Shown piece by piece: positions 2,431 to 25,694 of a stretch of 32,000 nucleotides of DNA (the first letter of the stretch is position 1; every line of letters starts with the position of its first letter). Source of the DNA: Trichormus sp. ATA11-4-KO1 (lineage in GTDB: Bacteria > Cyanobacteriota > Cyanobacteriia > Cyanobacteriales > Nostocaceae); assembly GCA_019358915.1 (NCBI GenBank), contig JAHHIM010000043.1, forward strand, positions 1 to 32,000, given 5' to 3'. The notes beneath the pieces are model-generated. The model did no database searches. It had not been told where the DNA came from and saw only the letters and a list, made by a program, of their open reading frames with translations. The position numbers and the translations under genes are program-made.

Positions 2431-2480
2431 AACGATTATCCCTTTTCAAGCGTGCCATTCGTATAAGACCGCAGTTGTAT

Positions 2481-2795: not shown

Positions 2796-2805
2796 TATTA
2801 AGTCA

Positions 2806-5628: not shown

Positions 5629-5749
5629 ATCCCCGACTCATTGTAGACCAGCAAAATTTTAATTTAGTGAGGGTCTTATACCCATTTATTCGTCCGCCAG
5701 TCACATAGAATTAAATTCTGAATTCTGACTCCTGAGTTCTGAATTCTTC
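5577..5749. mobile_element. AGGAGTC/TTCTGAC heptamer-flanked MITE-like element overlapping the virB4 3' end
   Basis: Inverted arms GAAGAATTCAGGAGCCAGAA ... TTCTGACTCCTGAGTTCTGAATTCTTC; core homologous (reverse complement) to 18325-18487. Confidence 0.75.
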
Positions 5750-5771
5750 TTGTAAAAATCGCTTAATTATC

Positions 5772-6488
5772 ATGCAACTCAAACCCCAAAAATTTATCAT
5801 CCCTATTTCTATTGTGCTGACAGGGATATTGATTTCTACTCCCAGTCACGCATTAAGCTTGCCAATTCTTAATTTTGTTCAGTCGATTATTGATGATGTG
5901 AGGAATGAGTATAGGCAGTTAGAGCAGCAAGTACAGCAAAAAATTGATAGTTCCTGGGCAGACATCAAGAATGATGCCCGTGAAGCTATTCAAAGTTCAA
6001 TGGGTTCAATGGGAACACCAGACCCAGTATCCAGTGGTGAAGACTTGAAACAAAGACTGAGAAATAGTCGTTCACTGCCAGAAGCCAAAAATCTGGCTCA
6101 AGATTTAGAACGAGATTTAACTCGAGCTTCTGTCTCATCTGTTGTGGGAGTAGAGGGACAACAAGATACGGAAAGAAAAATTCAGGCGACTACTCAAATA
6201 GCTCAAGAAGCTCAAAGTTTGGCACAGCAAGCACAAAACATGGATGCCTCCCAAAATATCTTGAAAGTCATCGCGGCTCAAAATGCTCAAATGGTTTCGG
6301 CGATCACTCGTCTTCACGCTGATTCTTTAGCTTCTCGACAAGATACAGCCCAATCAAATTTGATGCTGGCACAGATTGCCGACAATTTAGCCAGCACCCG
6401 TGAAAAAGAGAATTTACGAATTACAGGGCAGGCTACTTTAACTCAAGAATTAGTATTTATGTCCGTTTTAGATCCAGCAAGAAACTAA
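5772..6488 (+). CDS. MPF_C T4SS secreted coiled-coil protein (VirB5/TrbJ-like position)
   Basis: Signal peptide ending TPSHA; Gln/Ala-rich helical body; follows virB4. Confidence 0.6.
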   Translation: MQLKPQKFIIPISIVLTGILISTPSHALSLPILNFVQSIIDDVRNEYRQLEQQVQQKIDSSWADIKNDAREAIQSSMGSMGTPDPVSSGEDLKQRLRNSRSLPEAKNLAQDLERDLTRASVSSVVGVEGQQDTERKIQATTQIAQEAQSLAQQAQNMDASQNILKVIAAQNAQMVSAITRLHADSLASRQDTAQSNLMLAQIADNLASTREKENLRITGQATLTQELVFMSVLDPARN

Positions 6489-6491
6489 TAT

Positions 6492-7610
6492 ATGTTGCCA
6501 TTAATCCATTTGTTAGCTCAAACTCCTCCACCTGATAATGTCGCCCAGAGAGCCGCCCAAGTTTCTCAGGCAGTTTCTCAAGGTTTTGATGAGTTGTGGC
6601 AAGAGGTGCTGGGAGGCCCACTTTATTCTGCGATGTGTACAGTTGGTACATTATTTGCAATAACAACACTGGGGTTTTACATTCTGGAATGGACAAAACA
6701 AGTTTTAAACAATGAAGAACAACGAGCTTTTAGTTCTTTTATCTGGCCCTTAATTATTTCGGCACTGCTGTTTAACAATGGACAACTTTTGGGAAGAACG
6801 ACTGTTGGAATCAAAGACTATATAAATAATGTAAACAATTATGTGCTAACAAGAACAGCTGTAGGAGTTGACCTAAGAGCGGCTTATACCAGGGCTTTAG
6901 GTGTGACAGCAGTACGAAGTGCTATCGGCAGAGAAATTGAGATGTGTCAGTCATCTTCGTTGAGTCCCCAAGATGGCATTGATTGCTTGCAAGAAGCAAG
7001 AGGACGGCTCATGTCTCAGTATCCTAGCTACTTTGGTGCAACTGGCCCTTTTGCGTGGTTAATTGACCGCATAGATACTGTGATATCTGCGCCTATTCAA
7101 GCTATAAGAGGCGGCGCTAATCCTATTCAAGTTCTACTTTCTCCGTTTAGTGGGTACGTTGGCTCAGTTGTGTCGGAGAATATCACCAATATATTGGTAG
7201 GTCTAAGCGGAGCATATCAATGGGGCATAGAATTAACTATGCTTCTGAGCGCTTATCTTGGCCCTTTGGCTGTAGGTGGTTCATTACTACCCTATGGTTC
7301 ACGTTCAATTTTTGCATGGCTCACAGGATATTTTTCTGTCGGCATGGCAAAACTAGGTTTCAGCATTATCACAGGTTTTGCTGCCGAATTAATTGCTAAT
7401 TCTCGTTCAGATCAACCGCTATTTTTCTTATTCACAATTGGAATTATTGCGCCTTTTTTAGCCACAGGATTGGCGGCGGGTGGTGGACTAGCATTGCTTA
7501 ATCAAATTAATAAAGCCGCAGATGAAGCTAAGAATTTAGCCAAAGATGTTGCTGTCACTGTGTCCACTGGTGGTGGTGGTGGTGTGGCCAGAATGATTCG
7601 TCCTAGATAA
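6492..7610 (+). CDS. VirB6/TrbL-like polytopic T4SS membrane protein
   Basis: About six TM helices, periplasmic loop with a Cys pair, GPLAVGGSLLP, Gly-rich C-terminus. Confidence 0.7.
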   Translation: MLPLIHLLAQTPPPDNVAQRAAQVSQAVSQGFDELWQEVLGGPLYSAMCTVGTLFAITTLGFYILEWTKQVLNNEEQRAFSSFIWPLIISALLFNNGQLLGRTTVGIKDYINNVNNYVLTRTAVGVDLRAAYTRALGVTAVRSAIGREIEMCQSSSLSPQDGIDCLQEARGRLMSQYPSYFGATGPFAWLIDRIDTVISAPIQAIRGGANPIQVLLSPFSGYVGSVVSENITNILVGLSGAYQWGIELTMLLSAYLGPLAVGGSLLPYGSRSIFAWLTGYFSVGMAKLGFSIITGFAAELIANSRSDQPLFFLFTIGIIAPFLATGLAAGGGLALLNQINKAADEAKNLAKDVAVTVSTGGGGGVARMIRPR

Positions 7611-7869: not shown

Positions 7870-8658
7870 ATGCTCAAAATTAAACAAACAAACAAAGAGC
7901 CAAGTTTACTGTTGAGTTATGGAGCGGCAGTTCCAACTAGAGTAGCAATTGTAGCAGTAGTGGGATGTTCTGTAGCTTGTATTTCTTTGATTGTCCAATT
8001 TCTGAATTATGGGGCAATTAGCAGATTAGCTAAAAATAAAGTACCTTCATTGATTCAATTGTCAAATGGAGAAACTATCTATGCAAAAGCGGTAGACCCA
8101 GCAGAGCGCTCAAGTGAAACTATTAAGCAGTTTGTCTCTGATGCCTTTGTTGGAATGTTCAATTGGGATGGATTAGTTCAGACAAATAATGAGCAAGGTA
8201 AGCTGGTAATCAAAACAGATCCTGGGGTAGAAATCAAGGGAATAGATAACAATGCCTCTCGAAAAGTGACGACGAAAGCTTATGAAGCTGCTTTCTCTCT
8301 GACAGACAAACAAGGCTTCCGTTCGGCTTTTCTCAGGCGACTGGCACAAATGACCGACCCGGAAATATTTAGCGGAAATATTCGGGTAGCTATTGTCCCC
8401 AACTATATTTCAAATCCTCGCAAAATTAGCGAAGGAAAGTGGCAGATTGATTACCAATCTACTTTAGTGACCTTCAAGAAATTAGATAATGCTGGTGACG
8501 CTATTCCTTTTAATAAAACAATAACAGTTGAATCAGTTACCACCCCGCAAAACCCTCCAGAAGATACTACAGAATTAGCTAAGAAAATATATAGAATTCG
8601 GCAACCGGGACTAGAAATAACTCAAATTACTGATTTAAACCTTGGGAAAAATAATTGA
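7870..8658 (+). CDS. VirB8-like bitopic T4SS protein
   Basis: Single N-terminal TM then alpha/beta periplasmic domain; sits between VirB6-like and VirB10-like genes. Confidence 0.6.
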   Translation: MLKIKQTNKEPSLLLSYGAAVPTRVAIVAVVGCSVACISLIVQFLNYGAISRLAKNKVPSLIQLSNGETIYAKAVDPAERSSETIKQFVSDAFVGMFNWDGLVQTNNEQGKLVIKTDPGVEIKGIDNNASRKVTTKAYEAAFSLTDKQGFRSAFLRRLAQMTDPEIFSGNIRVAIVPNYISNPRKISEGKWQIDYQSTLVTFKKLDNAGDAIPFNKTITVESVTTPQNPPEDTTELAKKIYRIRQPGLEITQITDLNLGKNN

Positions 8659-8660
8659 TT

Positions 8661-10250
8661 ATGAATGAAAATATCTCAAATACAGAAAATCAAGAAAGTT
8701 CATCACTTGTTGATGAAATATTAAACATTGATGAACTGGATGAATCTTTCGTTGAACAAGAAGATAAAGCTCAAGATGAGATTCAAGACGTTGATGAAGC
8801 TGAACTTTTGACCAAGCATAATGTGATTACTTCCCCTTGGTCGAGGCTGGGTATAATTGGTGTACCGTTAGGTATTGGATTTTTGATTTTTTACTTTCTG
8901 TTTAACAACATAATTAACGGCAATTCTCAAGCCACAAACCAAAGTACTAAACCTACAGAAACAGAAGCAACAGAACAATCAACATCTGAATCTAATGATG
9001 GAGATGTTTACGCTCAACTAGCATTAGCTAGACAGTCTGAGCAATTAGAAAAAATTTACCAACAGAAACAAGAAGCACCATCACCTGAGTTACCAGAAAC
9101 CTCTAAAGTTAAACCTGAAACAGTTCCTAATCAATCTCTAACACCGCCGCCACCAGCACCGCCACCACCAGCACCGCCGCCGCCACCACCTAGAAATTAC
9201 TCCCCACCTCCACCTCCACCGACACCGACTCCTCCAAGAGTAACGCTAGAAAGAGAATTAACTCAAGCTCCCGACCCAATCAGTGAACTGAATAGATTAC
9301 GGAAAATGGGGTCATTTGGCAATATCGCCTATGCTGCCAATGAAAATGAATCATTGCCTGCTTCACAGCCCATACTCACAAGAATAGAGTCAGAAGAAAA
9401 CGAACCTGAACTTCCCATTACCAGCCCTCACCAAATTACTCCCAACGCGCTTTCTAGAGAGGGGATTGAGAAGATAGAGCCTCGTTGGCAAGTAGAAAAG
9501 CAAAGCAGACAAGCCAAGATGAATGATCTCAAAATAGCGTCAGTTAACTTTTTACCCCAGGAGGCTCAAATTATCAATGAGCGCCGCAGTCGTTACCTAG
9601 TAGTTGGAGAGTTCGCTAGCGGCACTTTGATTACTCCTTTGGTTAAAGAACAGTCCACTGATACAAATAACCAGCAGAATGAAGACGGCAAGCACTATGT
9701 TGCCAGGCTCACTGAAGACCTCAAAGATAATTACGGAAATGTGGCGATCGCTAGAGGCAGTTTAATGGCATTAGAAATGCTGTCAGTTGATGGTGCAAGT
9801 TACGCTCAAGTACAAGTAACAAGCATCATCAAAGACAACACAGAATATCCCATCAGTGCAGGAGCGATTACTGTACAGGGGGATGGCGGTAAACCATTAA
9901 TAGCTCAACAGCATAAAGATAAAGGCGGCGAAATCGCTAGGTATGACCTCACAGTGGGTTTGGTGAGCGGTTTAGAGAAGATTGGAGAAATTATTAATCA
10001 ACCCGACATTGAAGATGACATTGAAGACGAATTATTAGATGGTCGGATTCGTCGCCGCCGCCGCGTCAACAATAGTCGTCGCAATATTGGTGGGGCTGTA
10101 CTAGAAGGTGCATTCGGGAGCCTCAGCGAGATTATTGGTCGTCGGGCTGAAACTTCCACACAAGAAATTTTGGCTCGTCCCAATGTTTGGTACATACCTA
10201 AAGACACCAAATTAACATTTTTGGTCAACCGTACTTTAGAGCTTCCTTGA
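8661..10250 (+). CDS. virB10: VirB10/TrbI-family T4SS core protein
   Basis: Acidic N-terminus, one TM, long Pro-rich linker, C-terminal beta domain ending in VWYIPKDTKLTFLVNRTLEL (TrbI-like). Confidence 0.75.
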   Translation: MNENISNTENQESSSLVDEILNIDELDESFVEQEDKAQDEIQDVDEAELLTKHNVITSPWSRLGIIGVPLGIGFLIFYFLFNNIINGNSQATNQSTKPTETEATEQSTSESNDGDVYAQLALARQSEQLEKIYQQKQEAPSPELPETSKVKPETVPNQSLTPPPPAPPPPAPPPPPPRNYSPPPPPPTPTPPRVTLERELTQAPDPISELNRLRKMGSFGNIAYAANENESLPASQPILTRIESEENEPELPITSPHQITPNALSREGIEKIEPRWQVEKQSRQAKMNDLKIASVNFLPQEAQIINERRSRYLVVGEFASGTLITPLVKEQSTDTNNQQNEDGKHYVARLTEDLKDNYGNVAIARGSLMALEMLSVDGASYAQVQVTSIIKDNTEYPISAGAITVQGDGGKPLIAQQHKDKGGEIARYDLTVGLVSGLEKIGEIINQPDIEDDIEDELLDGRIRRRRRVNNSRRNIGGAVLEGAFGSLSEIIGRRAETSTQEILARPNVWYIPKDTKLTFLVNRTLELP

Positions 10251-12310: not shown

Positions 12311-14101
12311 ATGAGCAAACAAAATACAGTAATCGCGCAACAACCATCACAGTTTAGGCAATTTCCAAATCAGTTATCCACTCAGTTTAATCAACTACAA
12401 GACCCACAACATGACATTGGTAAATATACACATAACTTATTTAGTCCCAACGGATTGAGTCTTTTAGGGATGTTAGGGTTATTGATTATTCTGAAAGTCT
12501 TTTTTGGTGATAGCAATAATAAAAAGAAACTGGCCAGTAGTTATTGGGGAGGAAAAAAAGAGATTGCTGCTGCTAAGAAAAAAGCCCTAAAACAGATATC
12601 AACAATCAAGTGTGATAGTGCTGCTTTATATATTGGCAAGCATCAATTTAAAGGAAGAAAAACAGAAAAAGGTAGTGTGGGTATTCCCTTTTATGTTCCA
12701 GATGCCCAACGAGGTACAGCAGCTATTGGCGCTCCTGGTAGTGGGAAAACTTTCAGTGCTATCAATCCTTTAATTTACTCAGCAATTGACCAAGGATTTC
12801 CCATAATTGCGTATGATTTCAAATATCCATCCCAAGCCAAAATTGCAGCTTATGCCAAGAAAATGGGATATGACGTGCATATTTTCGCCCCTGGTTTCCC
12901 GGAATCTGAAGTCTGCAACCCTATTGATTTTTTAAGAGACTCTGCTGATGCAGAAACAGCAAGACAGCTAGCAACAGTTATTAATAAAAACTTCCGAATT
13001 ATCAGTAGTGCCAGTGAAGATGGTTTCTTTGGCCCTTCAGGAGATCAATTAACGCAAGCAATTTTAATGCTCACTAAAGAATTTGGCGATCGCGCTGACA
13101 TTATGACCTCAGCTGCTATCCTTTCTAGTGAGCAAATGGTCACCCGCTTAATGGCAGCTAACTTAAATCCTTGGATTAGAATCGCTTTTGGTCAGTTATT
13201 TAGTTCTGCTGGTTCTGAGAAAACTGTTGCCGGAATCACTGCTACTGCATCCTTAATGTTTACCCGCTTCATGGCGAAAAACACATTAGGCTGTTTTGTT
13301 GGTAAAACTACTTTACCCTTAGAAATTAAGGGTAAGCAAATGATTATTTTTGGACTAGATAGAGAGCGTCGAGATGCTGTTGCTCCCTTGATGACCAGTA
13401 TTCTACATATGACTGTGGCGAGGAATATTGCTAAAAAACGCCAAGACCCTCTAATAGTAGCTCTGGACGAATTACCCTCAATCTACTTACCAGACTTGTA
13501 TAAATGGCTGAACGAATCTCGAAGTGAAGGCTTTTGTGGTGTCCTGGGCTGGCAGAATATGGGTCAACTTGAGAAGAATTACGGTAAGGAAGTAGCTAAA
13601 ACTATCCTTGGTGCTTGCGGTACCAAGTTTGTCTTTAATCCCGGTGAAAACGATTCGGCACAATTATTTTCTAGCTTTTTGGGAGATGAAGAAATCAGAT
13701 ATAAACACAAAAGCCGTTCCACTGGTGGTGGGAAAGCCAATACGACAACGAGTGAGCAAGAAAAGACTAAGAAACTCTTTGAGTCTGCCCAATTTCTCAA
13801 ATTGCCAGCAGGTAAATGTGTTTTTATCAACCCTGCATATTCCAATAAAAATGAGGGGTCAGTTCCCTTGCTAAAAACTATCAAAATCCCTAAGTCCATT
13901 ATCTCAATCGATGATTACAACCAAGAACAATGGAGTAAATTAGTCGCTAAAATGGCACGACGAAGCACCCAAAGACCTCCGACACAACAAGATTTAGATA
14001 TCAGAATTAGAGAAGTAGACCGGAGACTGCCAATACCTGAAGACCCTGTGGAACCTGGGGTTCAGATGTTGCCTGTAGATAGCCTCAAATCAATGCTGTA
14101 G
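12311..14101 (+). CDS. virD4: Type IV coupling protein (VirD4/TraG/TraD family)
   Basis: N-terminal TM, Walker A GAPGSGKT, YDFKYP, NPIDF, Walker B VALDEL, GWQNMGQL, SSFLGDEEI. Confidence 0.92.
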   Translation: MSKQNTVIAQQPSQFRQFPNQLSTQFNQLQDPQHDIGKYTHNLFSPNGLSLLGMLGLLIILKVFFGDSNNKKKLASSYWGGKKEIAAAKKKALKQISTIKCDSAALYIGKHQFKGRKTEKGSVGIPFYVPDAQRGTAAIGAPGSGKTFSAINPLIYSAIDQGFPIIAYDFKYPSQAKIAAYAKKMGYDVHIFAPGFPESEVCNPIDFLRDSADAETARQLATVINKNFRIISSASEDGFFGPSGDQLTQAILMLTKEFGDRADIMTSAAILSSEQMVTRLMAANLNPWIRIAFGQLFSSAGSEKTVAGITATASLMFTRFMAKNTLGCFVGKTTLPLEIKGKQMIIFGLDRERRDAVAPLMTSILHMTVARNIAKKRQDPLIVALDELPSIYLPDLYKWLNESRSEGFCGVLGWQNMGQLEKNYGKEVAKTILGACGTKFVFNPGENDSAQLFSSFLGDEEIRYKHKSRSTGGGKANTTTSEQEKTKKLFESAQFLKLPAGKCVFINPAYSNKNEGSVPLLKTIKIPKSIISIDDYNQEQWSKLVAKMARRSTQRPPTQQDLDIRIREVDRRLPIPEDPVEPGVQMLPVDSLKSML

Positions 14102-14110
14102 GAGTTTTCA

Positions 14111-14623
14111 GTGAGAGCAAAGATTAGAGAGGAAGCTATCACTGACTTTCAACATATATACCAATTGGATCAAACAAAAAAAAGATTGCTAGGAAACATA
14201 GTAAATGTTTTAGGAGCTACATCACACATTGTCAGTGCTTTTTACAAACAATCCAGCAAGAGACCCTCATTAAAGAAAGTTGGTATATATGTCAAGCTTG
14301 TATTTAAGCATGTCCAAAAAATACTTGATGAAAAATATTATGAGCAAATTATTTACAGGTATCTTCAAGGAATTGGCTGGAGCGATTTACAATATATAGC
14401 TTTTATTGCTGTTAGGAGAAATTTAGTGGAAATTGACATTATTCTCAATCGAGTTATCTCTAGCACTAAAATCATCGATTTAAAATGCTTGGGTGCTACC
14501 TGGATGCAATACGAAATTCTGCAAAAAGTATATACAGAAATAATTAACACAGCCAATAGTAAATTTGTAAAGATTCAGAATTCAGAATACAAGAGTCAGA
14601 ATATTTCAAACTCTCATATTTGA
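14111..14623 (+). CDS. Degenerate MOBP-like relaxase domain lacking HUH histidines
   Basis: Collinear with the MOBP pattern: LDEKYYEQIIYRYLQGIGWSDLQY...EIDIILNRV versus LDDxxWxxIAxxYLxxMGFxxxQY...HxDxxxxHxHIxxNRV. GTG start with AGGAG RBS at the virD4 stop. Confidence 0.6.
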   Translation: MRAKIREEAITDFQHIYQLDQTKKRLLGNIVNVLGATSHIVSAFYKQSSKRPSLKKVGIYVKLVFKHVQKILDEKYYEQIIYRYLQGIGWSDLQYIAFIAVRRNLVEIDIILNRVISSTKIIDLKCLGATWMQYEILQKVYTEIINTANSKFVKIQNSEYKSQNISNSHI

Positions 14624-14927: not shown

Positions 14928-17324
14928 ATGTTTGATCCAAATTCCGTAAATCTTGTTTCCATTTTTTCTAGGGAAGATTATCAAAGAACTCTGAAAATTT
15001 GGAATGAAGCAATTGTGCCACTAGTTGAAGCAATTTCTGAGCGTTTAGAGTATGAATGGGACAAGAGAGCAAAGATAGAAATTGGATATGATACTTATGT
15101 CATGAAGCCCAATGAATCAGGGGGGTATTCGTGGTCAAAGATTGACCCCCTGATTGATATCGAATGGGATTTTGATGATGATTTAGAAGAAGTAAACAAA
15201 GCCACTACGGAGCCGGTTACATCATCACCTGCCGCTTCCCCATTTTCATCAACTGAAGCCACTCCTTTACCTGGAGTTACTTCAAAAGAGCCAGCCCATA
15301 ATGAAAACACACCAGATTCACCAAATTCCTCTACAGTCTCTCCTACTCCATCCCCTCCAGATCATATTGATTTGGAACATTGGCAAGAAATAGTGGAGGG
15401 CAGTGCCATTGACCCAGATATTGCCAGCCGCAATTTTAAAAGTCTTCAACACGACTCAGTAGAACAAGCAAATGAGGCGTGGGAATACCTGATGTACAGT
15501 AACAACATCTCCCGCCGTAACGATGGACGGCTCAGAGATGGAGATTTAAACAGATATCAGCACCTAGAAAAAGGCGGTTGGTGGTGCAATGCTGGGGTTG
15601 ACCCTCGCTCATTCCCAGATTTACAACCAGGCGACAAACCCGATGAAAAGCTGTGGGGATGCTTCAAACCTAACGCACCTAGGGAAAGTAGTGATAAACC
15701 TGGTAAATTCATCAAATACGAGCATCCACCCAAAACTGACTTGAGTATCTTTTTACTGGATGTGCCTGGCGCGATCGCTAACAAAATTTACGACAAAGCT
15801 GGAGTTAATCCAACCGAGAGCGATCGCCAGAGTGGATTTTGGTACTGTGCTTGGAAACATAATCTACCCATAATTGTGACTGAAGGTGCTAAAAAAGCAG
15901 GCAGCTTGTTAAGCCAAGGTCATGCAGCTATTGGATTACCGGGAATTAATGCTGGCTACCGTAGTCGAGATGAACAGGGGAATCCCATTCAGCCTCAACT
16001 GCGTGAAGAATTTGCCATGTTTGCGAATAAAGGTAGAGATATCAAATTCTGCTTTGACCACGATATCAAGCCGAAAACCATTCGTAATGTGAACATTGCT
16101 CTATTACAAACTGGTAACTTACTTGAGAAAGCTGGGGCAAACGTTAGTGTCATCGCGCTGCCTGGCCCTGAAAAAGGAGTTGATGATTTTACAGTCAAAC
16201 AGGGTTCAGTTGCTTTTGAACAGTTATTTAAAGAAGCTCAACCTTTAAAAGAGTGGCAGAAAAATTACCAACCACCTGATTTAAAATTCACAATCTTGTT
16301 GAAAAACGGCGAGGTACTCAAACTTTATGAAAAACAGGCAGACGGGACTGTTAGTGCCAATCCAGCTAATTTGTCATCAGAAGAAGTTGCTAATTCTATC
16401 CCTAAACCTCGCTCATCTCCAGAACCGCAAGCACCTATTAATTCAAAAAACTCAGAAAATAACAGTAGTAAAGAAGAAGCTAATCCCAATGTTGCACTAC
16501 CTTTAATTGAAAATAATGATAATTATCATGAATCTCAAAATCAACAATACTGGGCAGCACAACAACAAGTGCCAATCTACGCCAAAACTCTTCCTAGACA
16601 ATTTCTACTGAAGAAAGAAAATCAAGATATTGCATCTACTGCCAAGCAACTTATTGATAATTATGGAGTGGAATTAGATGATAGTAGCTTGGTTTACAAG
16701 AGTGATGCTTTTACCGTAAGGAAATTTCGTGACACTTACAGTATCCACCGTGCCGAAGATGAACAGAATACTTATTTCGCTCAACCTCTGATGCAATTTG
16801 AGATTGATAAACAAGGTAAGATTGCCATTACCAAAGAGCCGGAAAATATGCTGGCAGTAGAACGACAAGAATTTTTAAATGTTGCTAGCAAGGAAAATCA
16901 ACTACCTTCATTTTATGAAGATGCTAAAACACTTAAATCTCATCTAGGTTCTCTTGCTCCTTTGGGAACTCAAGAAACTATAAAAAAAATACAGATATCA
17001 GAAATTGGTCAACTGCTTAATAATACTTTAAATACAGCACAATCTCGTCATCTACAAATAGGAGCTTACCGAATTAAATCTGAGAATAATCCCCAGACTG
17101 GTGATAACTTTATTAAATTGTTTAAAAAAGAAAATAATTTAGATAGAGAAGCTATCAAGATTAATTTAACTACAAATGAAGCTCATACATTTAAAATTGG
17201 ACAGCAAGATGTCGAAAACCTCCAACTAATTGCTAAGAGGGTACAGTTAGAATATTCTCAACCACAATCTAGACAACAATTTCGCCAAAGTCGCAAGTCT
17301 AAAAATCCCGATATCGAATTATAA
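14928..17324 (+). CDS. DUF3854 (Toprim) primase-like protein with long C-terminal extension
   Basis: KYEHPPK, IIVTEGAKKAGSLLSQGHAAIGLPG, FCFDHD, KGVDD motifs; ATG 14928 preferred because GTG 14904 lies inside a repeat. Confidence 0.8.
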   Translation: MFDPNSVNLVSIFSREDYQRTLKIWNEAIVPLVEAISERLEYEWDKRAKIEIGYDTYVMKPNESGGYSWSKIDPLIDIEWDFDDDLEEVNKATTEPVTSSPAASPFSSTEATPLPGVTSKEPAHNENTPDSPNSSTVSPTPSPPDHIDLEHWQEIVEGSAIDPDIASRNFKSLQHDSVEQANEAWEYLMYSNNISRRNDGRLRDGDLNRYQHLEKGGWWCNAGVDPRSFPDLQPGDKPDEKLWGCFKPNAPRESSDKPGKFIKYEHPPKTDLSIFLLDVPGAIANKIYDKAGVNPTESDRQSGFWYCAWKHNLPIIVTEGAKKAGSLLSQGHAAIGLPGINAGYRSRDEQGNPIQPQLREEFAMFANKGRDIKFCFDHDIKPKTIRNVNIALLQTGNLLEKAGANVSVIALPGPEKGVDDFTVKQGSVAFEQLFKEAQPLKEWQKNYQPPDLKFTILLKNGEVLKLYEKQADGTVSANPANLSSEEVANSIPKPRSSPEPQAPINSKNSENNSSKEEANPNVALPLIENNDNYHESQNQQYWAAQQQVPIYAKTLPRQFLLKKENQDIASTAKQLIDNYGVELDDSSLVYKSDAFTVRKFRDTYSIHRAEDEQNTYFAQPLMQFEIDKQGKIAITKEPENMLAVERQEFLNVASKENQLPSFYEDAKTLKSHLGSLAPLGTQETIKKIQISEIGQLLNNTLNTAQSRHLQIGAYRIKSENNPQTGDNFIKLFKKENNLDREAIKINLTTNEAHTFKIGQQDVENLQLIAKRVQLEYSQPQSRQQFRQSRKSKNPDIEL

Positions 17325-17343
17325 TTAGTGGGAATCATCTACT

Positions 17344-18162
17344 ATGGAACAAGGTAAATCTTCAACTCTAGAAAAAATTAAACAAGTTAATCCTGGAGGC
17401 ATCTCAGATAATATGATGGTTGCCAGGCTTTCTCGTATATTGAATGAGACGAAAAATGCAGAAAAAGAGAAAGATAATTTAACAGTTGATTCTCCTGAAC
17501 GCCAGCAGCAACCACAACAAGAATTAGGAAAGTTATTATCTCAAGGGCAAAATACTGATGAGTACAAACAGCAACTCAAACAGCAATACCTCTCCCAATA
17601 TTTAGCTAAATTTGGACTAGAAGAGCAGAAGCCTCAACCTCAACCAAGTGCAGTAATTACTCAACTTGAGAAATTATCTGAGCGTCAAAAATCACGTCAA
17701 CAATCTGTGCCACAAAAACAGAGTATTTCATCAATAGTTAAAGACAAATTTAGCAAAGCAGTAGAATCAGTTATGGGGCAGAATGAGCGAACAAATAAAG
17801 ACCAGGAGAAGAAACCATTTATCATAGCAGTTATGGATGCCATTATCACCAGGGGTAAAAATATTGGCAATGGAATTAATACCTATGAAAATGAAGGATA
17901 TAAAGCTCAACTTCAAGTTCAAAATACTAAACAGATTCTTAGTATAGACCGCAAGAAACTACAACCGCAGCAACAGAACCCAGCTTTTCAAGCCGAAAAA
18001 GAGGGAGCAAATGATTTTAAGATTTTAAGAGACGATCTCTCTCAAGCAGAAGTGAAAAACATAGTTGAACTTAATCAACAAGAGCCACCATCACAATCAC
18101 CACAAACTCGAATTCAACAAAAGCGAAAAGAGAAAGATAAAGGTCTAGACATTGGTGATTGA
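17344..18162 (+). CDS. Gln-rich hypothetical protein, candidate T4SS substrate
   Basis: 272-aa ORF co-directional with the operon; basic C-terminal tail QQKRKEKDKGLDIGD. Confidence 0.7.
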   Translation: MEQGKSSTLEKIKQVNPGGISDNMMVARLSRILNETKNAEKEKDNLTVDSPERQQQPQQELGKLLSQGQNTDEYKQQLKQQYLSQYLAKFGLEEQKPQPQPSAVITQLEKLSERQKSRQQSVPQKQSISSIVKDKFSKAVESVMGQNERTNKDQEKKPFIIAVMDAIITRGKNIGNGINTYENEGYKAQLQVQNTKQILSIDRKKLQPQQQNPAFQAEKEGANDFKILRDDLSQAEVKNIVELNQQEPPSQSPQTRIQQKRKEKDKGLDIGD

Positions 18163-18163
18163 T

Positions 18164-18487
18164 AGGAGTCAGGAGTCAGAGTTCAGGAGTCAGAATTCAG
18201 GAGTCAGTATGAATGAAAATTCAAAATTCAAAATAAATGGTGAAAAACCGAACCAGATATATAACTTAGTAACCTTTTCAGATAGAGCGTTTGATTTCTG
18301 AATTATCAAAGCAGAATACATGCGTCAGTCGCCAGAATTCGGAATTTAATTCTGTGCGAGTGGCGAATGAATAAACGGGTTTAAGACCCCGCTAAATTTT
18401 TAATTTAGCGGTCTACAATTAGTGATGGGTCTGAATCCCCCACTAATTGATTCTGACTCCTGACTCCTGACTCCTGTATTCTTCTTC
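18164..18487. mobile_element. Nested AGGAGTC heptamer-flanked MITE-like element
   Basis: Left (AGGAGTC)n arm, internal TTCAAAA pair, right (TGACTCC)n arm ending TATTCTTCTTC; 18325-18487 homologous to 5577-5749. Confidence 0.75.
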
Positions 18488-18513
18488 AAGTTTCATACAA
18501 CATTTAGTACAAA

Positions 18514-19332
18514 ATGGGTAAAAAAAGAATGACAGACAACTCAAATAAACAGTCCGAAACTTACAGTCGCAGATTAGTAATTGTGACTGGTGACAAAGGA
18601 GGCGTGGGAAAAAGTACCTTTGCTAGAGGTTTATTACAAACCTACTTAGATACGCAGCAACAGTTCGTAGCCTTTGATGCTGATACGTCAAATCCACAAA
18701 TCAAAAGATTTTATGAGAAGGAATGCACGGTTTTACCTCTTGATATCTTCAAGAGGGGGCAAGCCGACATCTTTCTAGATCGGTTGAAAAACTTGATAGA
18801 TCCTCCCAAACAAGAAGGACAGGAAAATGCTGAACCGGGTAAATCTCTATTCTTACTTGAGTTACCACCCCAGTCGATTCAGTTTTTTCGCTCATTTGAG
18901 TATGAAATGGGATTCTTTGAAATGGTAGGCAAAGACCTTGACCTACGAGTAACGATGGCAGCAGTGATTAATAGAACAAAAGATTCGGTTAATCAACTCT
19001 CGCATTTACGTGATTTTTGTGGAAATAATGTTGATTATGTTGTGATAAAAAACCTATTTTTTGGTGATGAAGAAAGCTTTGAGCGATATGACAATTCTTC
19101 ATTAGTCACAGAACTAAAAGAACTTAAAGCTCCAATACCAGAAATCTATATGCCTGACTTGATAGCACACGCATACGACTATTTAGATGAAAACAATTAT
19201 TCATATGCTATGGGAATTACACAAACAGAAAAGCTTTCTGTAAAAGGTAGAGTCAGCAAGTGGATGGAAAATTTCAAGAACTCAATTAGGCCAGTGAAAA
19301 ACTTGTTGGGATTAGAAAATGTCTCCCTGTAA
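18514..19332 (+). CDS. MinD/ParA-superfamily P-loop NTPase (TraL/MobD-like mobilisation accessory)
   Basis: Deviant Walker A GDKGGVGKST, FDADTSN, YVVIKNLFFG. Confidence 0.8.
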   Translation: MGKKRMTDNSNKQSETYSRRLVIVTGDKGGVGKSTFARGLLQTYLDTQQQFVAFDADTSNPQIKRFYEKECTVLPLDIFKRGQADIFLDRLKNLIDPPKQEGQENAEPGKSLFLLELPPQSIQFFRSFEYEMGFFEMVGKDLDLRVTMAAVINRTKDSVNQLSHLRDFCGNNVDYVVIKNLFFGDEESFERYDNSSLVTELKELKAPIPEIYMPDLIAHAYDYLDENNYSYAMGITQTEKLSVKGRVSKWMENFKNSIRPVKNLLGLENVSL

Positions 19333-20056
19333 GCGTCTAATTATGACCGTAGGTGATTCTCGCGTAGGAAAGTCTACGGTGATTCGGCTGTTAATTGATT
19401 TTTTCTGCTCTCAAGGAAAGCGAATCAGAGCCTATGACCACGACAATCGCCGCAAATTAGATTCCTACAAATATTTAATCCCTGTTGAGAGTATCAATTT
19501 TAACGGAGGTACTGACCAGATACTCGAAGAAATCAAGAATGGCTACGATGCGATCGCCATTGATATGCCAGGACAGCAGATAGATAGAATCTGCGAGTAC
19601 ATGGATAATGTCAACCTTTTCAAAGTTTTGACTGAAGTTGGCTGGCGGCTAACTTTTGTACAACCAATTTCTCATAGATTAGACTGTCTTGAATATCTGG
19701 AACAGCTTTTAGCTTTTGCAGAGAACAAGGCTGATTATGTTGTGGTAAAAAACCAACACTTTGACCAAAAATTTCAGCTATATCAAAATTCCAGTTATTC
19801 CCAATTAATGACTTTGAGTGGTACAGACATTGTTCTTGATGGGCTAAATAAATATAGCTATGAAGCAATAGAAAGGGCATCCTGCCCATACTCACAAGCT
19901 ATTTCCTCTATTAGTATTTATTCTGTGTATAGAGCTTACGTTTACAAATGGATTAAAAATTTCCACCAATCAATTTTAAATAATTCTATCGCTCAAAGAC
20001 ATTTAGGACTTTTACAAATAAATCAGGAGCAAGAGCAAAGGCATGACCTTTTTTGA
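19319..20056 (+). CDS. Second, diverged TraL/MobD-like P-loop NTPase paralogue
   Basis: GDSRVGKST, YDHD, IDMPG, YVVVKNQHF; overlaps the preceding gene. Confidence 0.75.
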   Translation: MSPCKRLIMTVGDSRVGKSTVIRLLIDFFCSQGKRIRAYDHDNRRKLDSYKYLIPVESINFNGGTDQILEEIKNGYDAIAIDMPGQQIDRICEYMDNVNLFKVLTEVGWRLTFVQPISHRLDCLEYLEQLLAFAENKADYVVVKNQHFDQKFQLYQNSSYSQLMTLSGTDIVLDGLNKYSYEAIERASCPYSQAISSISIYSVYRAYVYKWIKNFHQSILNNSIAQRHLGLLQINQEQEQRHDLF

Positions 20057-20148
20057 ATTCAAAATGCAAAATGCAAAATGAAGAAGAAATAATGCGCGAA
20101 TTTTGAATTGATAATTTTGAATTTTGAATTGGAGCGAAGCGACATGAC
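20044..20148 (+). mobile_element. Short copy of the TGAC-targeting TTCAAAA element
   Basis: (CA)TGAC duplicated at 20042-20047 and 20143-20148; left end CTTTTTTGAATTCAAAATGC, right end TAATTTTGAATTTTGAATTGGAGCGAAGCGA. Confidence 0.8.
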
Positions 20149-20755
20149 GATTTCTAAATATTCTGAAGCAGAAAAGGAAAGAATACGAGAACTTTCAGAG
20201 GAAATAGGATTTGACCCCAATGACCCGATGTTCCAAATTATGAGCATCTTGGGTAATTTTGAGGAGATGATGATTCAATTTCCTGCTCAGATGGAAGCCT
20301 TGATGGAAGCCGGGGCACTGATGATGGATAAAAAACTAGAATCAGCATCCAAAGCCGCAGAGGTGATGCAACACGCAATCATTACCTCTGCCGTTAAAGA
20401 AAGTATTAAAGAAGAAATCCCTCGGCTGAAACCGACAATTTCTCTGCCTGTGGAAGCACCGCAGATTGGTAAAGTCAAACTGGGGGTGTGGTCTATTGGT
20501 AGTATTCTTGGCGGCATGATAGCCTTAGGGGCTTTACTCGGTTCTGCCACTACTTGGAATGTCATTGCTAATTACGTGGCAGATCCCACCACTGGAGTTA
20601 CAGCCAACGATCTGAAAACTTTACAATGGGCGAAATCACCAGAGGGAAATCTTGCAAGGCAAATATTGACTGATAACAAAACCACAATTGATGTTTGTCG
20701 GCGAGAAGATCGCTTACAAGGTCACTGCTTAGTTAAAATCAGAAAGTCCAACTGA
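20144..20755 (+). CDS. Single-TM plasmid protein (DUF6753 / TraM-MobE-like)
   Basis: ATG 20144; GFDPNDPMF motif, helical region, one TM, LQWAKSPEGNLAR; follows the P-loop pair. Confidence 0.6.
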   Translation: MTISKYSEAEKERIRELSEEIGFDPNDPMFQIMSILGNFEEMMIQFPAQMEALMEAGALMMDKKLESASKAAEVMQHAIITSAVKESIKEEIPRLKPTISLPVEAPQIGKVKLGVWSIGSILGGMIALGALLGSATTWNVIANYVADPTTGVTANDLKTLQWAKSPEGNLARQILTDNKTTIDVCRREDRLQGHCLVKIRKSN

Positions 20756-20766
20756 CTTGTAAACTA

Positions 20767-21003
20767 ATGCATGACTTTAAAAATACGCTAGATCAAGTTG
20801 AGAATATTATAGCAATTGCCATATTCCTTTGCTTAATCATCGTAGCGCTTGCTAAGTTTGAAATTGATATTTTGGAAACAGTTTTTTACCTGGTACTCGC
20901 AGCGATTATATCTCCCTTTACAAAAATAAATAGACCAGCAAAACGTTTATTGCTGGTCTTTGGCTTTATTTGGGGTGTTTTGTTGGGTTATTTTACAAAA
21001 TAA
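20767..21003 (+). CDS. Small hydrophobic membrane protein
   Basis: 78 aa, three hydrophobic segments, 11 bp after the previous stop. Confidence 0.6.
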   Translation: MHDFKNTLDQVENIIAIAIFLCLIIVALAKFEIDILETVFYLVLAAIISPFTKINRPAKRLLLVFGFIWGVLLGYFTK

Positions 21004-21303
21004 GGAAGAAGTTAGGAGGAAGAAGGAAGAAGGAAGAAGGAATAGCTAATAAAACAGGAGTCAGAATACAGAACTCAGAATTCAGAATACTCTACCCATA
21101 AAGGGATAGAGTTTTAAGGCGAGAATATTTTAATTTTTTTTCGCCCACAATTCCACTCGGTTTTAACCGATATTCATCACCCACTCGTACAAAATTCATA
21201 CTGAATTCTGACTCCTGAGTTCTGAATTCTTCTTATAAAAACTTTAGTTGTGGGTTTAAAGCCCACTTTTTTAAATGTGGGTCTCTTCTTCTTTCTTCCT
21301 TCG
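21002..21303. mobile_element. Nested element: outer GAAGAAG/CTTCTTC arms, inner AGGAGTC/TTCTGAC arms
   Basis: Outer AAGGAAGAAG...CTTCTTCTTTCTTCCTT; inner CAGGAGTCAGAA (~21056) ... TTCTGACTCCTGAGTTCTGAATTCTTC (~21232); hairpins at 21250-21281. Confidence 0.7.
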
Positions 21304-21317
21304 TGAATTAACAAATT

Positions 21318-23318
21318 TCACAGTTCTTGCCCCGGCTGCTTACGCCTCTGTTGTGACTGCTGTTTTTTCCTGGCACATAGCGTATCATTCCAATCTTTAC
21401 CTTTGGGTTTAACCCTGATGGCATGATGTAACTGTTCCATGATCATTCGTGCCGTTTCATCCCCGGCATGGTCATTGTCATAGGCCACTTCCACTGCGGG
21501 AACAGTGTTGAGAAATTCCACAGGCAGACTTTTGGGACTATCTACTGCCATGTACATTGTCCTGGCTAATGGCAGCCCTTGCTGGATTTCCAGTTCAAGC
21601 GTTGCCAATGATAATGCCTCAATGGGGGACTTACACAATACTGCCCTTTGAATTTTGTCTTGTGGTTGACCACTTAAACAAAAGTAAAACCACCCATCAG
21701 TACGCTTGGTTCCTCTCTCATATCCTTTAAAGGTGTTATCAAGAAAGGCAGAGGGCAGAGGGCAGGAGGCAGAAGGAATACTGTCCTCTGTTCTCTGCTG
21801 CGACCACAGTCCTGCCGGGTTTAAGACCCCCACAGTCCTGCCGTTCAGTGGCTCCAAATCAGGAGGGGTGGAATTTCCTCCTGATTTGTTCCTTCTGCCC
21901 TCTGCCGAATGCCTTCTGCCTTCTTCAACTTCCCCTCGTGTCCCTCGTAAAAATGCACCTGTGGTTTCACCGTTCAAATCTCGCATCAAGAACACAGTGT
22001 TCTGTTGCTCGTCAGCATAGACAAACCCCCGCTCATGAAGGGCTTGCACAAAATTTGGTAGTAATCCCCGTTTTTGTGTGAGGTAATTTTGAACCGCTTG
22101 CCAATGGACTTGCTCCTTAACTGGTGCTACAAACTGAGGCTTTGGCTCCACCTGGGCAATTTTCTGAGCTTGTTCTCTGGCATGATGAGTTACAGACCGT
22201 TGCATCCCCACTTCACCAAATCGTTCATTTAGCCAGGCGATCGCTTGCCGATAATTACACTCATTAACGTGCATCACCAAGTCAATTGCACCGCCGCAGC
22301 CCTTTTGGACATTGGGATGAAAGTCGTAAAACTTGGAGCCATCTATCTTCATGATGTGACCGTGACCTCTCCATCTCTTCGACTGGTCACGGTCACGGTC
22401 TAGCCCCAACTGCCATGCTACATCCTCCAGGGGCAAATCCCGTAGTTGTTCGGCTTGCTGTTTCCATAGCAAATTCTCTTTTTCTTGCTCCAGTAAGCGC
22501 CGACCTAAATGCTGGCGGAGTTTTTCTGATGCGATCGCTTTTTGTGATGCCCGTTTCTCTAACTCAATCATTCGTCGGCGATCTGCTAATTGATGATCAA
22601 GGTCGAGTATGCGTTTGTCATTCTTGATCCGGTCAAGTAATTGTTGGGCTGTTTCCCCAGGTAGCGGTGCGAATCGCTCTAGTTCTAAACTTAAAGGTTT
22701 ACTGTTGACTGCCTGATAATATTCTTTAACTTTGGTGTGCGTGGCATTGCTACCTTTAATACCCCGTTCAATGCCCAATGATGCAAGTGCTTGTGCATAA
22801 CTATCTTGCAGCTTCGATAACTTAATTCTTCCTTGTCCCTGACTACCACCGAACATCTCTTTATAGCTCAGTCGTTTGGTTTTTTCGTTGACAGGAACCA
22901 CATAAGCGTGGATATGAGGAGTCGCTTCATCCAAGTGCAATTCTGCCCTAACGCACTTATCGCCGTAATTCTCCAGCAACCAGTTTTTAGAAGCATTGGC
23001 AAAGTCTAACATCCGTTGATTATCCCACTCGCCTGCTCTTGAGGGGTCATGAGGGCGAAAGTATTCTGGTGATGCCGAGAGAAATATTTCACTACACAGT
23101 ACTGAGTCTTTCCTAGGCTTGTATTTTGTCTGGGATGTGATTTTGTCTTTCACCACCTCTAACAGCGATCGCTCGTCACACTCCCCAATGAGCCGGATGT
23201 TTTCTTTAGCTGGGTCAGCATTGGGAGTATCTTGAAGTCGGGCAGTATGTTTCTCACTGCCACCGATGTTGCCAAAGGACTTTAATTTCTCAACGCGCAG
23301 AATTGCCAGCGCTACCAT
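21318..23318 (-). CDS. mobV: MOBV (Pre/Mob) relaxase with C-terminal DUF3991/Toprim-like domains
   Basis: AILRVEKLK...EKHTAR, EIFLSASPEYF, LHLDEATPHIHAYVVP (HUH), LQDSYA...LGIERG; C-terminal YLTQKRGL, VAYDNDHAG, KDWND. Confidence 0.92.
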   Translation of the reverse strand: MVALAILRVEKLKSFGNIGGSEKHTARLQDTPNADPAKENIRLIGECDERSLLEVVKDKITSQTKYKPRKDSVLCSEIFLSASPEYFRPHDPSRAGEWDNQRMLDFANASKNWLLENYGDKCVRAELHLDEATPHIHAYVVPVNEKTKRLSYKEMFGGSQGQGRIKLSKLQDSYAQALASLGIERGIKGSNATHTKVKEYYQAVNSKPLSLELERFAPLPGETAQQLLDRIKNDKRILDLDHQLADRRRMIELEKRASQKAIASEKLRQHLGRRLLEQEKENLLWKQQAEQLRDLPLEDVAWQLGLDRDRDQSKRWRGHGHIMKIDGSKFYDFHPNVQKGCGGAIDLVMHVNECNYRQAIAWLNERFGEVGMQRSVTHHAREQAQKIAQVEPKPQFVAPVKEQVHWQAVQNYLTQKRGLLPNFVQALHERGFVYADEQQNTVFLMRDLNGETTGAFLRGTRGEVEEGRRHSAEGRRNKSGGNSTPPDLEPLNGRTVGVLNPAGLWSQQRTEDSIPSASCPLPSAFLDNTFKGYERGTKRTDGWFYFCLSGQPQDKIQRAVLCKSPIEALSLATLELEIQQGLPLARTMYMAVDSPKSLPVEFLNTVPAVEVAYDNDHAGDETARMIMEQLHHAIRVKPKGKDWNDTLCARKKQQSQQRRKQPGQEL
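21741..21929. mobile_element. 189-bp GGCAGAG/CTGCCTT-flanked element inserted in frame in the relaxase gene
   Basis: Arms AAGAAAGGCAGAGGGCAGAGGGCAG ... CTGCCCTCTGCCGAATGCCTTCTGCCTTCTT; adds 63 codons between GTRGE and DNTFKGY. Confidence 0.8.
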
Positions 23319-23345
23319 ATTTTTTAAAACGCGACTATCTAAGTC

Positions 23346-23459
23346 TTACTTTCGTGCCCCCGGCAGGGCGAACTACTTTTGTGTCTCGAACGCAGTGAGA
23401 GATGCCGTAGGCACCCCGCAGGGGCACGAAAGTAAAGTGAGTATACCATCATGGTACTC
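23346..23459 (+). other. Putative oriT (MOBV/RSA type)
   Basis: Perfect 15-bp inverted repeat TTACTTTCGTGCCCC (23346-23360)/GGGGCACGAAAGTAA (23421-23435) running into AAAGTAAAGTGAGTATAC, similar to the pBBR1 oriT core AAAGTCTAGTGAGTATAC as recalled; just upstream of the relaxase start. Confidence 0.75.
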
Positions 23460-23479
23460 TACCCGAAATCTCTCTTTTA

Positions 23480-23612
23480 CCCGCCACCGCTACACCCCAT
23501 TTACACCACATTTACACCCCTTGCTTTTTTTAGTTCTAACTCGATTTTTTGGCTTTTCACACCACGTCTACACCCCCTTTACACCACACTAAAACCACTT
23601 TTAACCCCTAGT
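23480..23612 (+). promoter_or_regulatory. parC-like centromere/operator: two blocks of 11-bp direct repeats
   Basis: Units TACACC(C/A)C(A/T)TT-like at 23491, 23502, 23513 and at 23558, 23569, 23580, 23591, 23602, directly upstream of the parR-like/parM genes. Confidence 0.7.
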
Positions 23613-23657
23613 ATTTTTTTAGTGTGTTTTAATACGAATATACTTAGATTTCAGATC

Positions 23658-24098
23658 ATGAGAAAACAACGAAATAAAAATGTTGAACTTCCAAGGTTCA
23701 AACGGAGTACCTCAAATTGGGAAGGCAAAGTCATTGAATACTTATTGGCTTATCCTGGAAAAACTGCTGTTGAGCTAACTGGGGAAGCCCTTACTTCTTA
23801 CTGGTTGGTTGAGGCTTTGGAGGGCAAGGTTAGTGATGAAGAATTTCAAAAAGCTTGCCGTGCTGCTGCCGAAAATCTCTCGAAAAAGTTGGCTTCTATC
23901 CAACAAATGTCTAATTTGAATACAATTACATCAGTACCCTCTTTTACACCACCAGTTTCGCCAACAACTCAACCAGTGGTTACACAAGTTCCTCAAAATG
24001 AAGAAGATGAAAATGAAGATGATGAGGACGACTGGGATATGAATCTTCAACCCACTGCCGACATGATTGCAGCTAATCAAATATTTAAAAAGGAATAA
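23658..24098 (+). CDS. Candidate ParR-like adaptor
   Basis: ATG 23658 (the longer track ORF crosses the iterons); 146 aa with basic N-terminus, helical core, acidic disordered tail; 1 bp before parM. Confidence 0.55.
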   Translation: MRKQRNKNVELPRFKRSTSNWEGKVIEYLLAYPGKTAVELTGEALTSYWLVEALEGKVSDEEFQKACRAAAENLSKKLASIQQMSNLNTITSVPSFTPPVSPTTQPVVTQVPQNEEDENEDDEDDWDMNLQPTADMIAANQIFKKE

Positions 24099-24099
24099 A

Positions 24100-25323
24100 A
24101 TGACTGCTAATAACCAATCTGATGCAATAAAGCTGGTTTTGACTTGTGATTTGGGGGCAAGTCTTAATAAGATAATCGCTCAAATATATCCTGATGCTGT
24201 GCCGCAGGTTATTACCATGAGTCCAGAAGTAGCAGATGTAGAAAAGGAGTCCGTTAAAGGACTTGCTGTTGATGCTGCTTCTCAGGACGCAGCTTGGGTG
24301 GGAATAGGCTCCGAATACTACGTTTTGGGGAGTCTGGCTAAATCTATCTTTGGTGGTACATCTGCTATTCGGGATTTGAAGTATCAGTATGCGTTACCTA
24401 AGCTAGCTGGGTTATTATGGTTGACCTGTCAACATTTCAAGTTAAAAGAGGCTGATATTTTTGTACATTTACTGCTGCCATCCGGTGAGTACAAAGATGG
24501 TAAAACTTTAGGGAAGCAGTTGTCTGTGGCTCTCAAGCAAGGAATCATTACACCAACTGGTAAATTAAAACTCAAGCAGCGCAATTTCCATGTTTCTTTG
24601 GAAGGTGCTGGTGTTTTTTCTCATCGTCGGCGCACTTTGGATAATGCTTATTATCGTCAGAGCATTGGAATGCTGATGTTAGGTTATCGCAATGCCAGCT
24701 TGACTGTGGTTAAAGGTGGTAACCACATCAAAGCTGAATCCACAGATTGGGGGATGAATTGGTTAGTTCAACGGTTTGTTGATCATACTGCTGTTGGTTT
24801 GTCTAAAGACGATTTACGTGTACCAAAAGCTTTGGTAGAAGCAAGCTTAGGTAATTGTGAGCTACTCCGTTCTCTATCACGAAAAACTAAATCTGCTGAT
24901 ATAGAGTCTGACCTGGCGTTATTTCAACAGTCTTTAAATCTTGTGCGTCGGGAGTATTGCCGCGCTTTGTTACGGTGGATTAGAAATATCGCATCTGTCG
25001 ATGAAGTTCTTATTTGTGGTGGCACTGGTGAATTTGTTCGTCAAGAACTGAGTAAATATTTTGAACAAGAAGGAATACCCATTGTTTGGAATGGTGGGGT
25101 GAACATTCCCACAGTTCTAGATACTGATAAATTGGGTAGTAGATTGGCTGATGTCTGGGCTTCACACATTAACCACATTGAGATGTTGGATCAGCATTTC
25201 AGTTATGATCGTCAGCAGCCACTAGTTTCAGAGCCTCAACCCCAACCCCAAAAAATAGTTGAACTTGCTTCTGCCAAATCTGACCCTTGGAAAGGCTATT
25301 TACCGATGAAGGAAGGCCTATGA
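24100..25323 (+). CDS. parM: ParM/StbA actin-like plasmid segregation protein
   Basis: Phosphate-1 DLGASLNK, LLLPSGEY, connect-1 LEGAG, phosphate-2 MLGYRNAS, adenosine ICGGTG. Confidence 0.88.
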   Translation: MTANNQSDAIKLVLTCDLGASLNKIIAQIYPDAVPQVITMSPEVADVEKESVKGLAVDAASQDAAWVGIGSEYYVLGSLAKSIFGGTSAIRDLKYQYALPKLAGLLWLTCQHFKLKEADIFVHLLLPSGEYKDGKTLGKQLSVALKQGIITPTGKLKLKQRNFHVSLEGAGVFSHRRRTLDNAYYRQSIGMLMLGYRNASLTVVKGGNHIKAESTDWGMNWLVQRFVDHTAVGLSKDDLRVPKALVEASLGNCELLRSLSRKTKSADIESDLALFQQSLNLVRREYCRALLRWIRNIASVDEVLICGGTGEFVRQELSKYFEQEGIPIVWNGGVNIPTVLDTDKLGSRLADVWASHINHIEMLDQHFSYDRQQPLVSEPQPQPQKIVELASAKSDPWKGYLPMKEGL

Positions 25324-25694
25324 GCATTACCCAAAAGCTGACAGAGTTTGCCGAACAACAGAATTTCGATGTTAGGTCATCTGAAATTTATGACGGGGTT
25401 TGGCAAGATGCAGCGATTACCAATATTCCCGAAACTACCCTCAAAGAGGGCGATCGCTTGCTGTCGCTCCTCAAAGATAGTGAGGCTTCACCAGAATTTA
25501 TCATCAGTTTCCTCGCATATTCCTATCAAAAAGGAATGCCGCTTTACTTGATGGAACATATCTTGAATAGCGACCTCGATGGTGATGGTAGAACCTTATC
25601 TCAAGAGTATTTTCAGGATGGTACAGACCCTTTAGCAATAGATCCTTGTAGAAAACAAGCACAAAAATCAAGACAAATTGAATTGGAGCTATGA
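25320..25694 (+). CDS. Hypothetical protein with DxDxDG Ca-binding-like motif
   Basis: ATGA overlap with parM; SDLDGDGRTLSQEYFQDGTDPL; tail RKQAQKSRQIELEL. Confidence 0.7.
   Translation: MSITQKLTEFAEQQNFDVRSSEIYDGVWQDAAITNIPETTLKEGDRLLSLLKDSEASPEFIISFLAYSYQKGMPLYLMEHILNSDLDGDGRTLSQEYFQDGTDPLAIDPCRKQAQKSRQIELEL

Follow-up and report, generated by a model that had tools for sequence, protein, structure and literature searches.

The last residues of transferred proteins are essential in several described type IV secretion systems (T4SSs): the Gln-rich tail of the Xanthomonas XVIPCD does not bind the all-alpha domain of VirD4 and yet deletion of its last six residues abolishes transfer, Agrobacterium VirF requires its final Arg-Gly-Leu, and Legionella RalF requires a hydrophobic residue at position −3 (PMC8740702). 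F-type systems move many proteins by way of C-terminal or internal signals (PMC11288057), and the Toprim primases RP4 TraC1 and R64 SogL are co-transferred (PMC5512222). For cyanobacteria, pCC7120alpha is the model of the MPF_C class of conjugation systems (PMC4027160). Here we describe a C-terminal tail that a MobV relaxase shares with three other proteins encoded by a 32,000-nucleotide stretch of Trichormus sp. ATA11-4-KO1 DNA (hereafter the window, contig C43 of a genome assembly of 73 contigs), and which is probably a translocation signal of MPF_C conjugation. A survey of 2014 came upon no study, experimental or computational, of conjugation systems in cyanobacteria (PMC4027160), and searches of the open-licence PMC and bioRxiv literature yielded no description of such a tail, or of signals or substrates for cyanobacterial conjugation.

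The four C-termini, which an earlier sequence-only reading of the window had pointed out and which are present in the DNA as it quoted them, belong to the DUF3854 protein encoded next to virD4 (...QQFRQSRKSKNPDIEL), a protein of 272 residues (hereafter 17344; ...QQKRKEKDKGLDIGD), the MobV relaxase (...QQSQQRRKQPGQEL) and a protein of 124 residues (hereafter 25320; ...RKQAQKSRQIELEL). Common to them is a polar Gln/Lys/Arg linker followed by [G/D/E]-hydrophobic-[E/S]-[L/I/R] (Table 1). A rule fitted post hoc to these tails is matched by 4 of the 28 open reading frames (ORFs) of the contig versus 5 of the 4,809 other ORFs of the genome; under a looser rule, set later, matches among the latter rise to 61 (1.3%), no 28-gene block out of 171 non-overlapping ones reaches three, and the binomial probability of at least 4 in 28 is 4e-4. 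Because ORFs were called mechanically (at least 90 residues, overlaps removed), the background includes some false ones, and the P values given here and below overstate significance, since the tails had partly been seen before the rule was fixed and homologues are kin. The likeness of the tails goes beyond chance, and the stronger evidence for it is their conservation among homologues.

Homologues were taken from 80 VirD4 loci (the best 80 of 170), from 120 of the 1,165 MobV homologues and from the relatives of both small proteins, with counts referring to distinct tails and 17344-family fragments of less than 140 residues left out. By the full rule, which 61 of the 4,809 background ORFs pass (312 have the end motif), the tail is found in 83/103 MobV, 56/68 DUF3854/D1 (D1 being a domain described below), 42/47 17344-family and 17/19 25320-family proteins, together 198 of 237 (84%). 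Only 3 of 415 tails (0.7%) pass in ten co-encoded T4SS and accessory groups from the same loci, with counts of 0/56 for the VirB4-like ATPase and 0/39 for the VirB10/TrbI-like family, which bears out the initial remark that structural T4SS proteins lack it. Among MobV tails, 85% have G/E/D at position −4, 79% have L at −3, 93% have E/S at −2 and 84% have L or R at −1, with variable positions upstream; Glu occupies −2 in 68% of these tails and in 76% of those of D1 proteins, L occupies −1 in 84% of the latter, and members of the 17344 family add one or two residues at the end (ELD, ELGD). In two families the end positions vary less than the linker does, and the conserved element consists of the last four residues, with a hydrophobic side chain at −3 and E/S at −2, and not of positive charge. 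The tail is predicted to be hydrophilic and unstructured, two of the four being modelled by AlphaFold2 without secondary structure and at a predicted local distance difference test (pLDDT) score below 50, a low confidence that serves as a proxy for disorder. It is retained where the last folded region differs between homologues, and the motif also survives replacement of the tail itself: relaxases 97% identical to the MobV protein of the window end in QQQER, with QQER in place of GQEL.

The DUF3854 protein is made of a Toprim-like domain, two alpha/beta domains (D1 and D2) and the tail; residues 556–806 are modelled at a pLDDT of 87, and the last 19 below 50. Its PF12965 match spans residues 312–435, numbered from the GTG at 14904, and contains TEG at 326 and FDHD at 384, which we take to be the Toprim catalytic residues (Glu, DxD); the protein is a predicted primase. 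The DUF3854 region has no sequence match in the PDB, and the domain has otherwise been described in CyRepA replication proteins (PMC10079941). The four tail carriers had at first been described as unrelated, which proved wrong for two of them: the C-terminal domain of the 17344 protein is homologous to D1 (HHalign 91.9%, E 6.8e-7, 81 columns), and by this profile comparison the window holds three independent tail groups, not four. The shared domain fails to explain the tail, because D2 separates D1 from it and homologues vary just before it; D2 itself has no profile similarity to D1 or to the 17344 domain, though the predicted order of its elements is similar. D1 is also present in virD4-downstream proteins devoid of DUF3854, with a strong match on pCC7120gamma (E 3e-16) and weak ones on four elements that are more distant (E 0.001–0.008), and in the loci inspected its gene is at most two genes away from virD4. 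Fold searches returned no clear match for the model of the 17344 protein (best Z 6.3, root-mean-square deviation 3.0, 70 aligned) or for D1 plus D2 (best Z 4.8, and no Foldseek match at E 0.001), and ESM Atlas matches (mobilization fragments, DUF4316, TSP3_bac), all below 0.9, are leads only.

Judged by the families compared, the tail follows a role in conjugation and not protein family. Of the full-length MOBP relaxases, 6/9 show the end motif and 3/9 pass the full rule; for MOBF relaxases these fractions are 2/3 and 1/3, and for a plasmid protein family of 1,300–2,070 residues 5/8 and 4/8. The full rule is passed by none of 14 Rep-type DUF3854 proteins (about 900–1,200 residues, CyRepA-like, six of them checked by Pfam) and none of 15 ParM homologues. 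Among 41 genomes, the D1 family is found in nine and the 17344 family in six, all of them among the 16 with a VirD4 match, and neither occurs in the 25 without one. Two MOBF relaxase-helicases fused to DUF3854 have Arg-rich ends (L103:13493–17992 and L160:4356–9089). A second virD4-bearing contig of the same genome (G000:C38) encodes, at 2467–7218, a 1,583-residue protein with the tail, and three relatives of this protein (1,591–2,073 residues) have no Pfam match.

These comparisons suggest, and we consider it probable, that the tail is a C-terminal translocation signal of MPF_C conjugation that marks the relaxase, the predicted primase and two other proteins; from this we infer recognition by VirD4, the putative reader or gatekeeper, and delivery to recipients. 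The shared T4SS substrate signal proposed by the sequence-only reading is thereby backed in its comparative part, with the tail being carried by relaxases of three MOB families, a virD4-adjacent protein and a large plasmid protein family and hardly ever by machine subunits, Rep-type DUF3854 proteins or ParM, but not in its reliance on charge, its four separate groups or its par link. Mechanistically, the VirD4 complex, or a later step, would engage the free C-terminus and thread the unfolded chain; the reader need not be VirD4 itself, because the XVIPCD tail is essential without binding the all-alpha domain. The relaxase would pilot single-stranded DNA, and second-strand synthesis would be primed by the DUF3854 protein in the manner of RP4 TraC and R64 SogL. 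D1-type domains may supply a folded region for docking, comparable to XVIPCD and BID domains, and the role of the 17344 and 25320 proteins would lie in establishment. A more elaborate version, which we put forward tentatively and think unlikely, is a two-part address in which a portable four-residue acidic-hydrophobic end, separately adopted by MOBV, MOBP and MOBF relaxases, would be combined with D1 as an XVIPCD-like VirD4-docking module; the D1 protein would then be a modular carrier of swappable cargo such as the primase, and L- and R-ending forms would partly sort substrates between coupling-protein clades. The four-residue motif would allow cargo to be listed from sequence and might provide a tag for protein delivery between cyanobacteria. 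To specialists this should be useful rather than startling, given that other systems are already known to have C-terminal signals and to co-transfer primases.

Several observations weigh against a translocation signal. The rule was tuned after many tails had been seen. The tails of the window have net charges of +3, +2, +5 and +1 over their last 20 residues, but the same region is neutral or negative in 96 of 231 distinct tails (MobV 41/101, D1 15/65, 17344 27/46, 25320 13/19), so that of the Gln/basic tail with an acidic-hydrophobic end originally proposed the end holds and the positive charge does not; the net positive charge and Arg cluster of the Agrobacterium signal are likewise not conserved. 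Tail endings follow the VirD4 clade only loosely: in the D1 family beside close VirD4 homologues 56 of 68 end in a hydrophobic residue and none in Arg, seven virD4-downstream proteins on elements whose VirD4 is at the 44–49% level have Arg as last or second-last residue, and strict co-variation with the clade was rejected on account of the 97% identical relaxases ending in QQQER. Genome G002 has the 25320 family and no VirD4 match at E 1e-40, and MobA and TrwC use internal signals in their own systems and C-terminal ones in heterologous systems (PMC10025392). A first blind test with the strict rule on six plasmid sets gave 2/915 versus 2/4,809 (p 0.12), the core motif on the same sets 7/915 versus 10/4,809 (p 0.012), and a second test, on seven sets of which three had in part been seen before, 11/1,006 versus 14/4,766 (p 0.002), with most matches being orthologues of the four families. 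With these orthologues removed, plasmid ORFs still match in 45/2,066 cases versus 61/4,809 (odds ratio 1.7, p 0.007), a modest excess because of which the cargo set must be small and the rule must give false positives; some plasmid matches, such as an HlyD protein and a transposase, are implausible as cargo.

All of the comparative results would be accounted for equally well by a donor-side docking motif that brings the relaxase, the primase and accessory proteins together at the coupling complex or the relaxosome, with only the relaxase crossing, and the proximity of the D1 gene to virD4 is what an adaptor would show. We regard this as unlikely, since likely donor-side proteins mostly lack the tail (TraL-like P-loop pair 0/20, DUF6753 0/9, 14111 family 1/20) and its carriers include a primase, SLOG/macro and very large proteins, which are typical of transferred cargo. 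A mixture of motifs, with the 25320 tail binding the beta sliding clamp and the others binding, for example, a protease or a host factor, draws on a further point against a common signal: 25320 and its five near homologues (6/6) end in Q-hydrophobic-x-L-x-L, that is, with Q at −6 and hydrophobic residues at −5, −3 and −1, like the hexameric clamp motif QLxLxL of Pol IV (PMC4564189). DUF6884 proteins of the virD4 downstream operon (L020:15665–17083 and relatives) end likewise in 6 of 9 distinct tails, and ParR-like ORFs ending in TLDFDL also pass the tail rule. This explanation is nonetheless quite improbable, as neither clamp motif occurs in any of 14 tails of the wider 25320 family, 101 of MobV, 65 of D1 and 46 of 17344, and Arg-ending variants are incompatible with such a motif. 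The ORFs in question, which have 103–108 residues and end in TFTLDFDL (L100:13080–13391, L119:8239–8550, L206:17222–17548, L215:2608–2919), are probably ParR-like and false positives of the rule; the L100 copy follows a ParM/StbA gene.

That the tails are instead what is left of relaxase 3' ends, distributed by the shuffling of domains and devoid of a shared function, is suggested by the domain common to two of the four proteins, by the degenerate relaxase domain directly upstream of the D1 gene and by the variation of tails between relaxases 97% identical overall. It is very unlikely in view of the stronger constraint on end positions than on the linker, the survival of the motif when GQEL gives way to QQER, and the lack of DNA similarity between the four tail-coding sequences beyond that of shuffles (best 22/300), a result on which recent DNA duplication was also rejected as their source. 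Chance likeness of low-complexity polar C-termini, finally, could be fostered by a rule that is loose and post hoc and that 1.3% of background ORFs pass, but the gap between 84% of 237 homologue tails and 0.7% of 415 same-locus controls makes it extremely improbable.

Table 1. Coordinates of the tails, their carriers and other features of the window
Feature	Position	Strand	Evidence
VirB4-like ATPase, MPF_C-type transfer cluster	2806–5628	+	TIGR02746 E 1.8e-11, TIGR00929 E 1.1e-8, both below cut-off
VirB10/TrbI-like core protein	8655–10250	+	PF03743 E 1.3e-9
VirD4-type coupling protein	12311–14101	+	PF10412, PF12696, PF02534 above cut-off
MOBP-relaxase-like domain with HUH histidines replaced, no tail	14111–14623	+	PF03432 E 0.001, below cut-off
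virD4-adjacent DUF3854 protein (alternative GTG start 14904)	14928–17324	+	PF12965
Domain D1 (helix, beta-meander, helix)	16629–16883	+	HHalign to 17344 C-terminal domain
Tail 1, last residues KNPDIEL	17262–17324	+	
272-residue 17344 protein: helical N-domain, D1-like C-domain, tail	17344–18162	+	
D1-like C-domain of the 17344 protein	17803–18081	+	
Tail 2, last residues KGLDIGD; family variants ELD, ELGD, EIG	18100–18162	+	
MobV relaxase with DUF3991 and Toprim_2 domains	21318–23318	−	NF041497 above cut-off; PF01076, PF13154, PF13155
Tail 3, last residues QPGQEL; family variants GLEL, DLSL, RGLER	21318–21380	−	
ParM/StbA-like actin gene, stop overlaps start of 25320, no tail	24067–25323	+	NF052678 E 3.4e-7, below cut-off
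124-residue 25320 protein: TSP3-like DxDxDG calcium-binding-type motif (about 25572–25631), tail 4	25320–25694	+	alignment
Tail 4, last residues RQIELEL	25632–25694	+	

The VirD4 protein matches 117 plasmid records, whose listed organisms are cyanobacteria, mostly Nostocales, and is 77% identical to that of pCC7120alpha, a plasmid whose MobV, D1/DUF3854 and 17344-family genes also encode tails. When the 14111 protein, encoded downstream of VirD4, is aligned with a full MOBP relaxase (E 1e-6), EID takes the place of HIH; the protein is possibly an adaptor or a relaxase remnant, and in many Nostocales loci a stand-alone domain of this type separates virD4 from the D1 gene. At 18514–20755, a DUF6753 gene accompanies a pair of P-loop genes, of which the first is weakly TraL-like (E 0.0015); these genes recur near mobV, and the pair resembles traL–traM of IncP. 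The relaxase gene contains a 189-bp in-frame insertion (21741–21929, residues 464–526) that is absent from relatives 97–99% identical and has four other near-full genomic copies at 71–83% identity, and is likely a small dispersed repeat. An ORF at 23451–24098, upstream of the ParM-like gene, has an acidic C-terminal region, recurs at the same place in three other plasmids and is a candidate ParR-like partner. In the 25320 family TSP3_bac is detected weakly, in 3 of 13 members (best E 0.006). Membership of the 25320 gene in the par operon, as the sequence-only reading had it, agrees with the overlap of its start with the ParM-like stop (ATGA), but a conserved linkage was rejected: the linkage recurs in just 3 of 32 other loci with the gene, most of which extend only 1–2 kb upstream of it, and the link is incidental.

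With VirB4-, VirD4- and VirB10-like proteins and a relaxase on a cyanobacterial element, the window has the composition of MPF_C, and its locus is similarly compact; the description of that class defines the components of the machine, and its MPFC section names no substrates or signals (PMC4027160). RP4 TraC1, R64 SogL and polyvalent proteins likewise include a Toprim-type protein encoded in the transfer region together with variable domains (PMC5512222), whereas the Toprim domain here is of the DUF3854 type and a primase by prediction. Like RalF, which tolerates nearby charge changes, the tails have a hydrophobic residue at −3 (PMC8740702), but RalF belongs to the Dot/Icm system with its DotM and IcmSW-type adaptors, none of which was identified here.

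The XVIPCD likewise combines a small alpha/beta domain with a Gln-rich tail, disordered and with hydrophobic last residues, in a VirD4-type system. It differs from the present case in its alpha-alpha-beta-beta-beta topology (D1 is predicted to have a helix, five or six strands and a helix), in its last six residues, which contain Arg and nothing acidic while −2 is mostly Glu here, and in its context, which is killing and not plasmid conjugation; the relaxase and the 25320 protein of the window show no D1 domain, and a Pfam search of the window gave no XVIPCD match. Agrobacterium VirB/VirD4 substrates (VirF, VirE2, VirD2 and the C48 of RSF1010 MobA) share with the tail carriers a hydrophilic C-terminus, disordered there and predicted to be so here, on the relaxase and on other proteins (PMC10025392, PMC8740702), and many MobV homologues end in RGLER where VirF ends in Arg-Gly-Leu. 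In summary, the tail agrees with C-terminal T4SS signals in general in lying at the extreme C-terminus of a relaxase and of non-structural proteins and not of machine subunits, and differs from those described because it has neither the Arg-rich character of the Agrobacterium signal nor the tail end of XVIPCD; if our reading is correct, it would be a conjugative signal that relies on hydrophobic and acidic residues at the terminus and not on positive charge.

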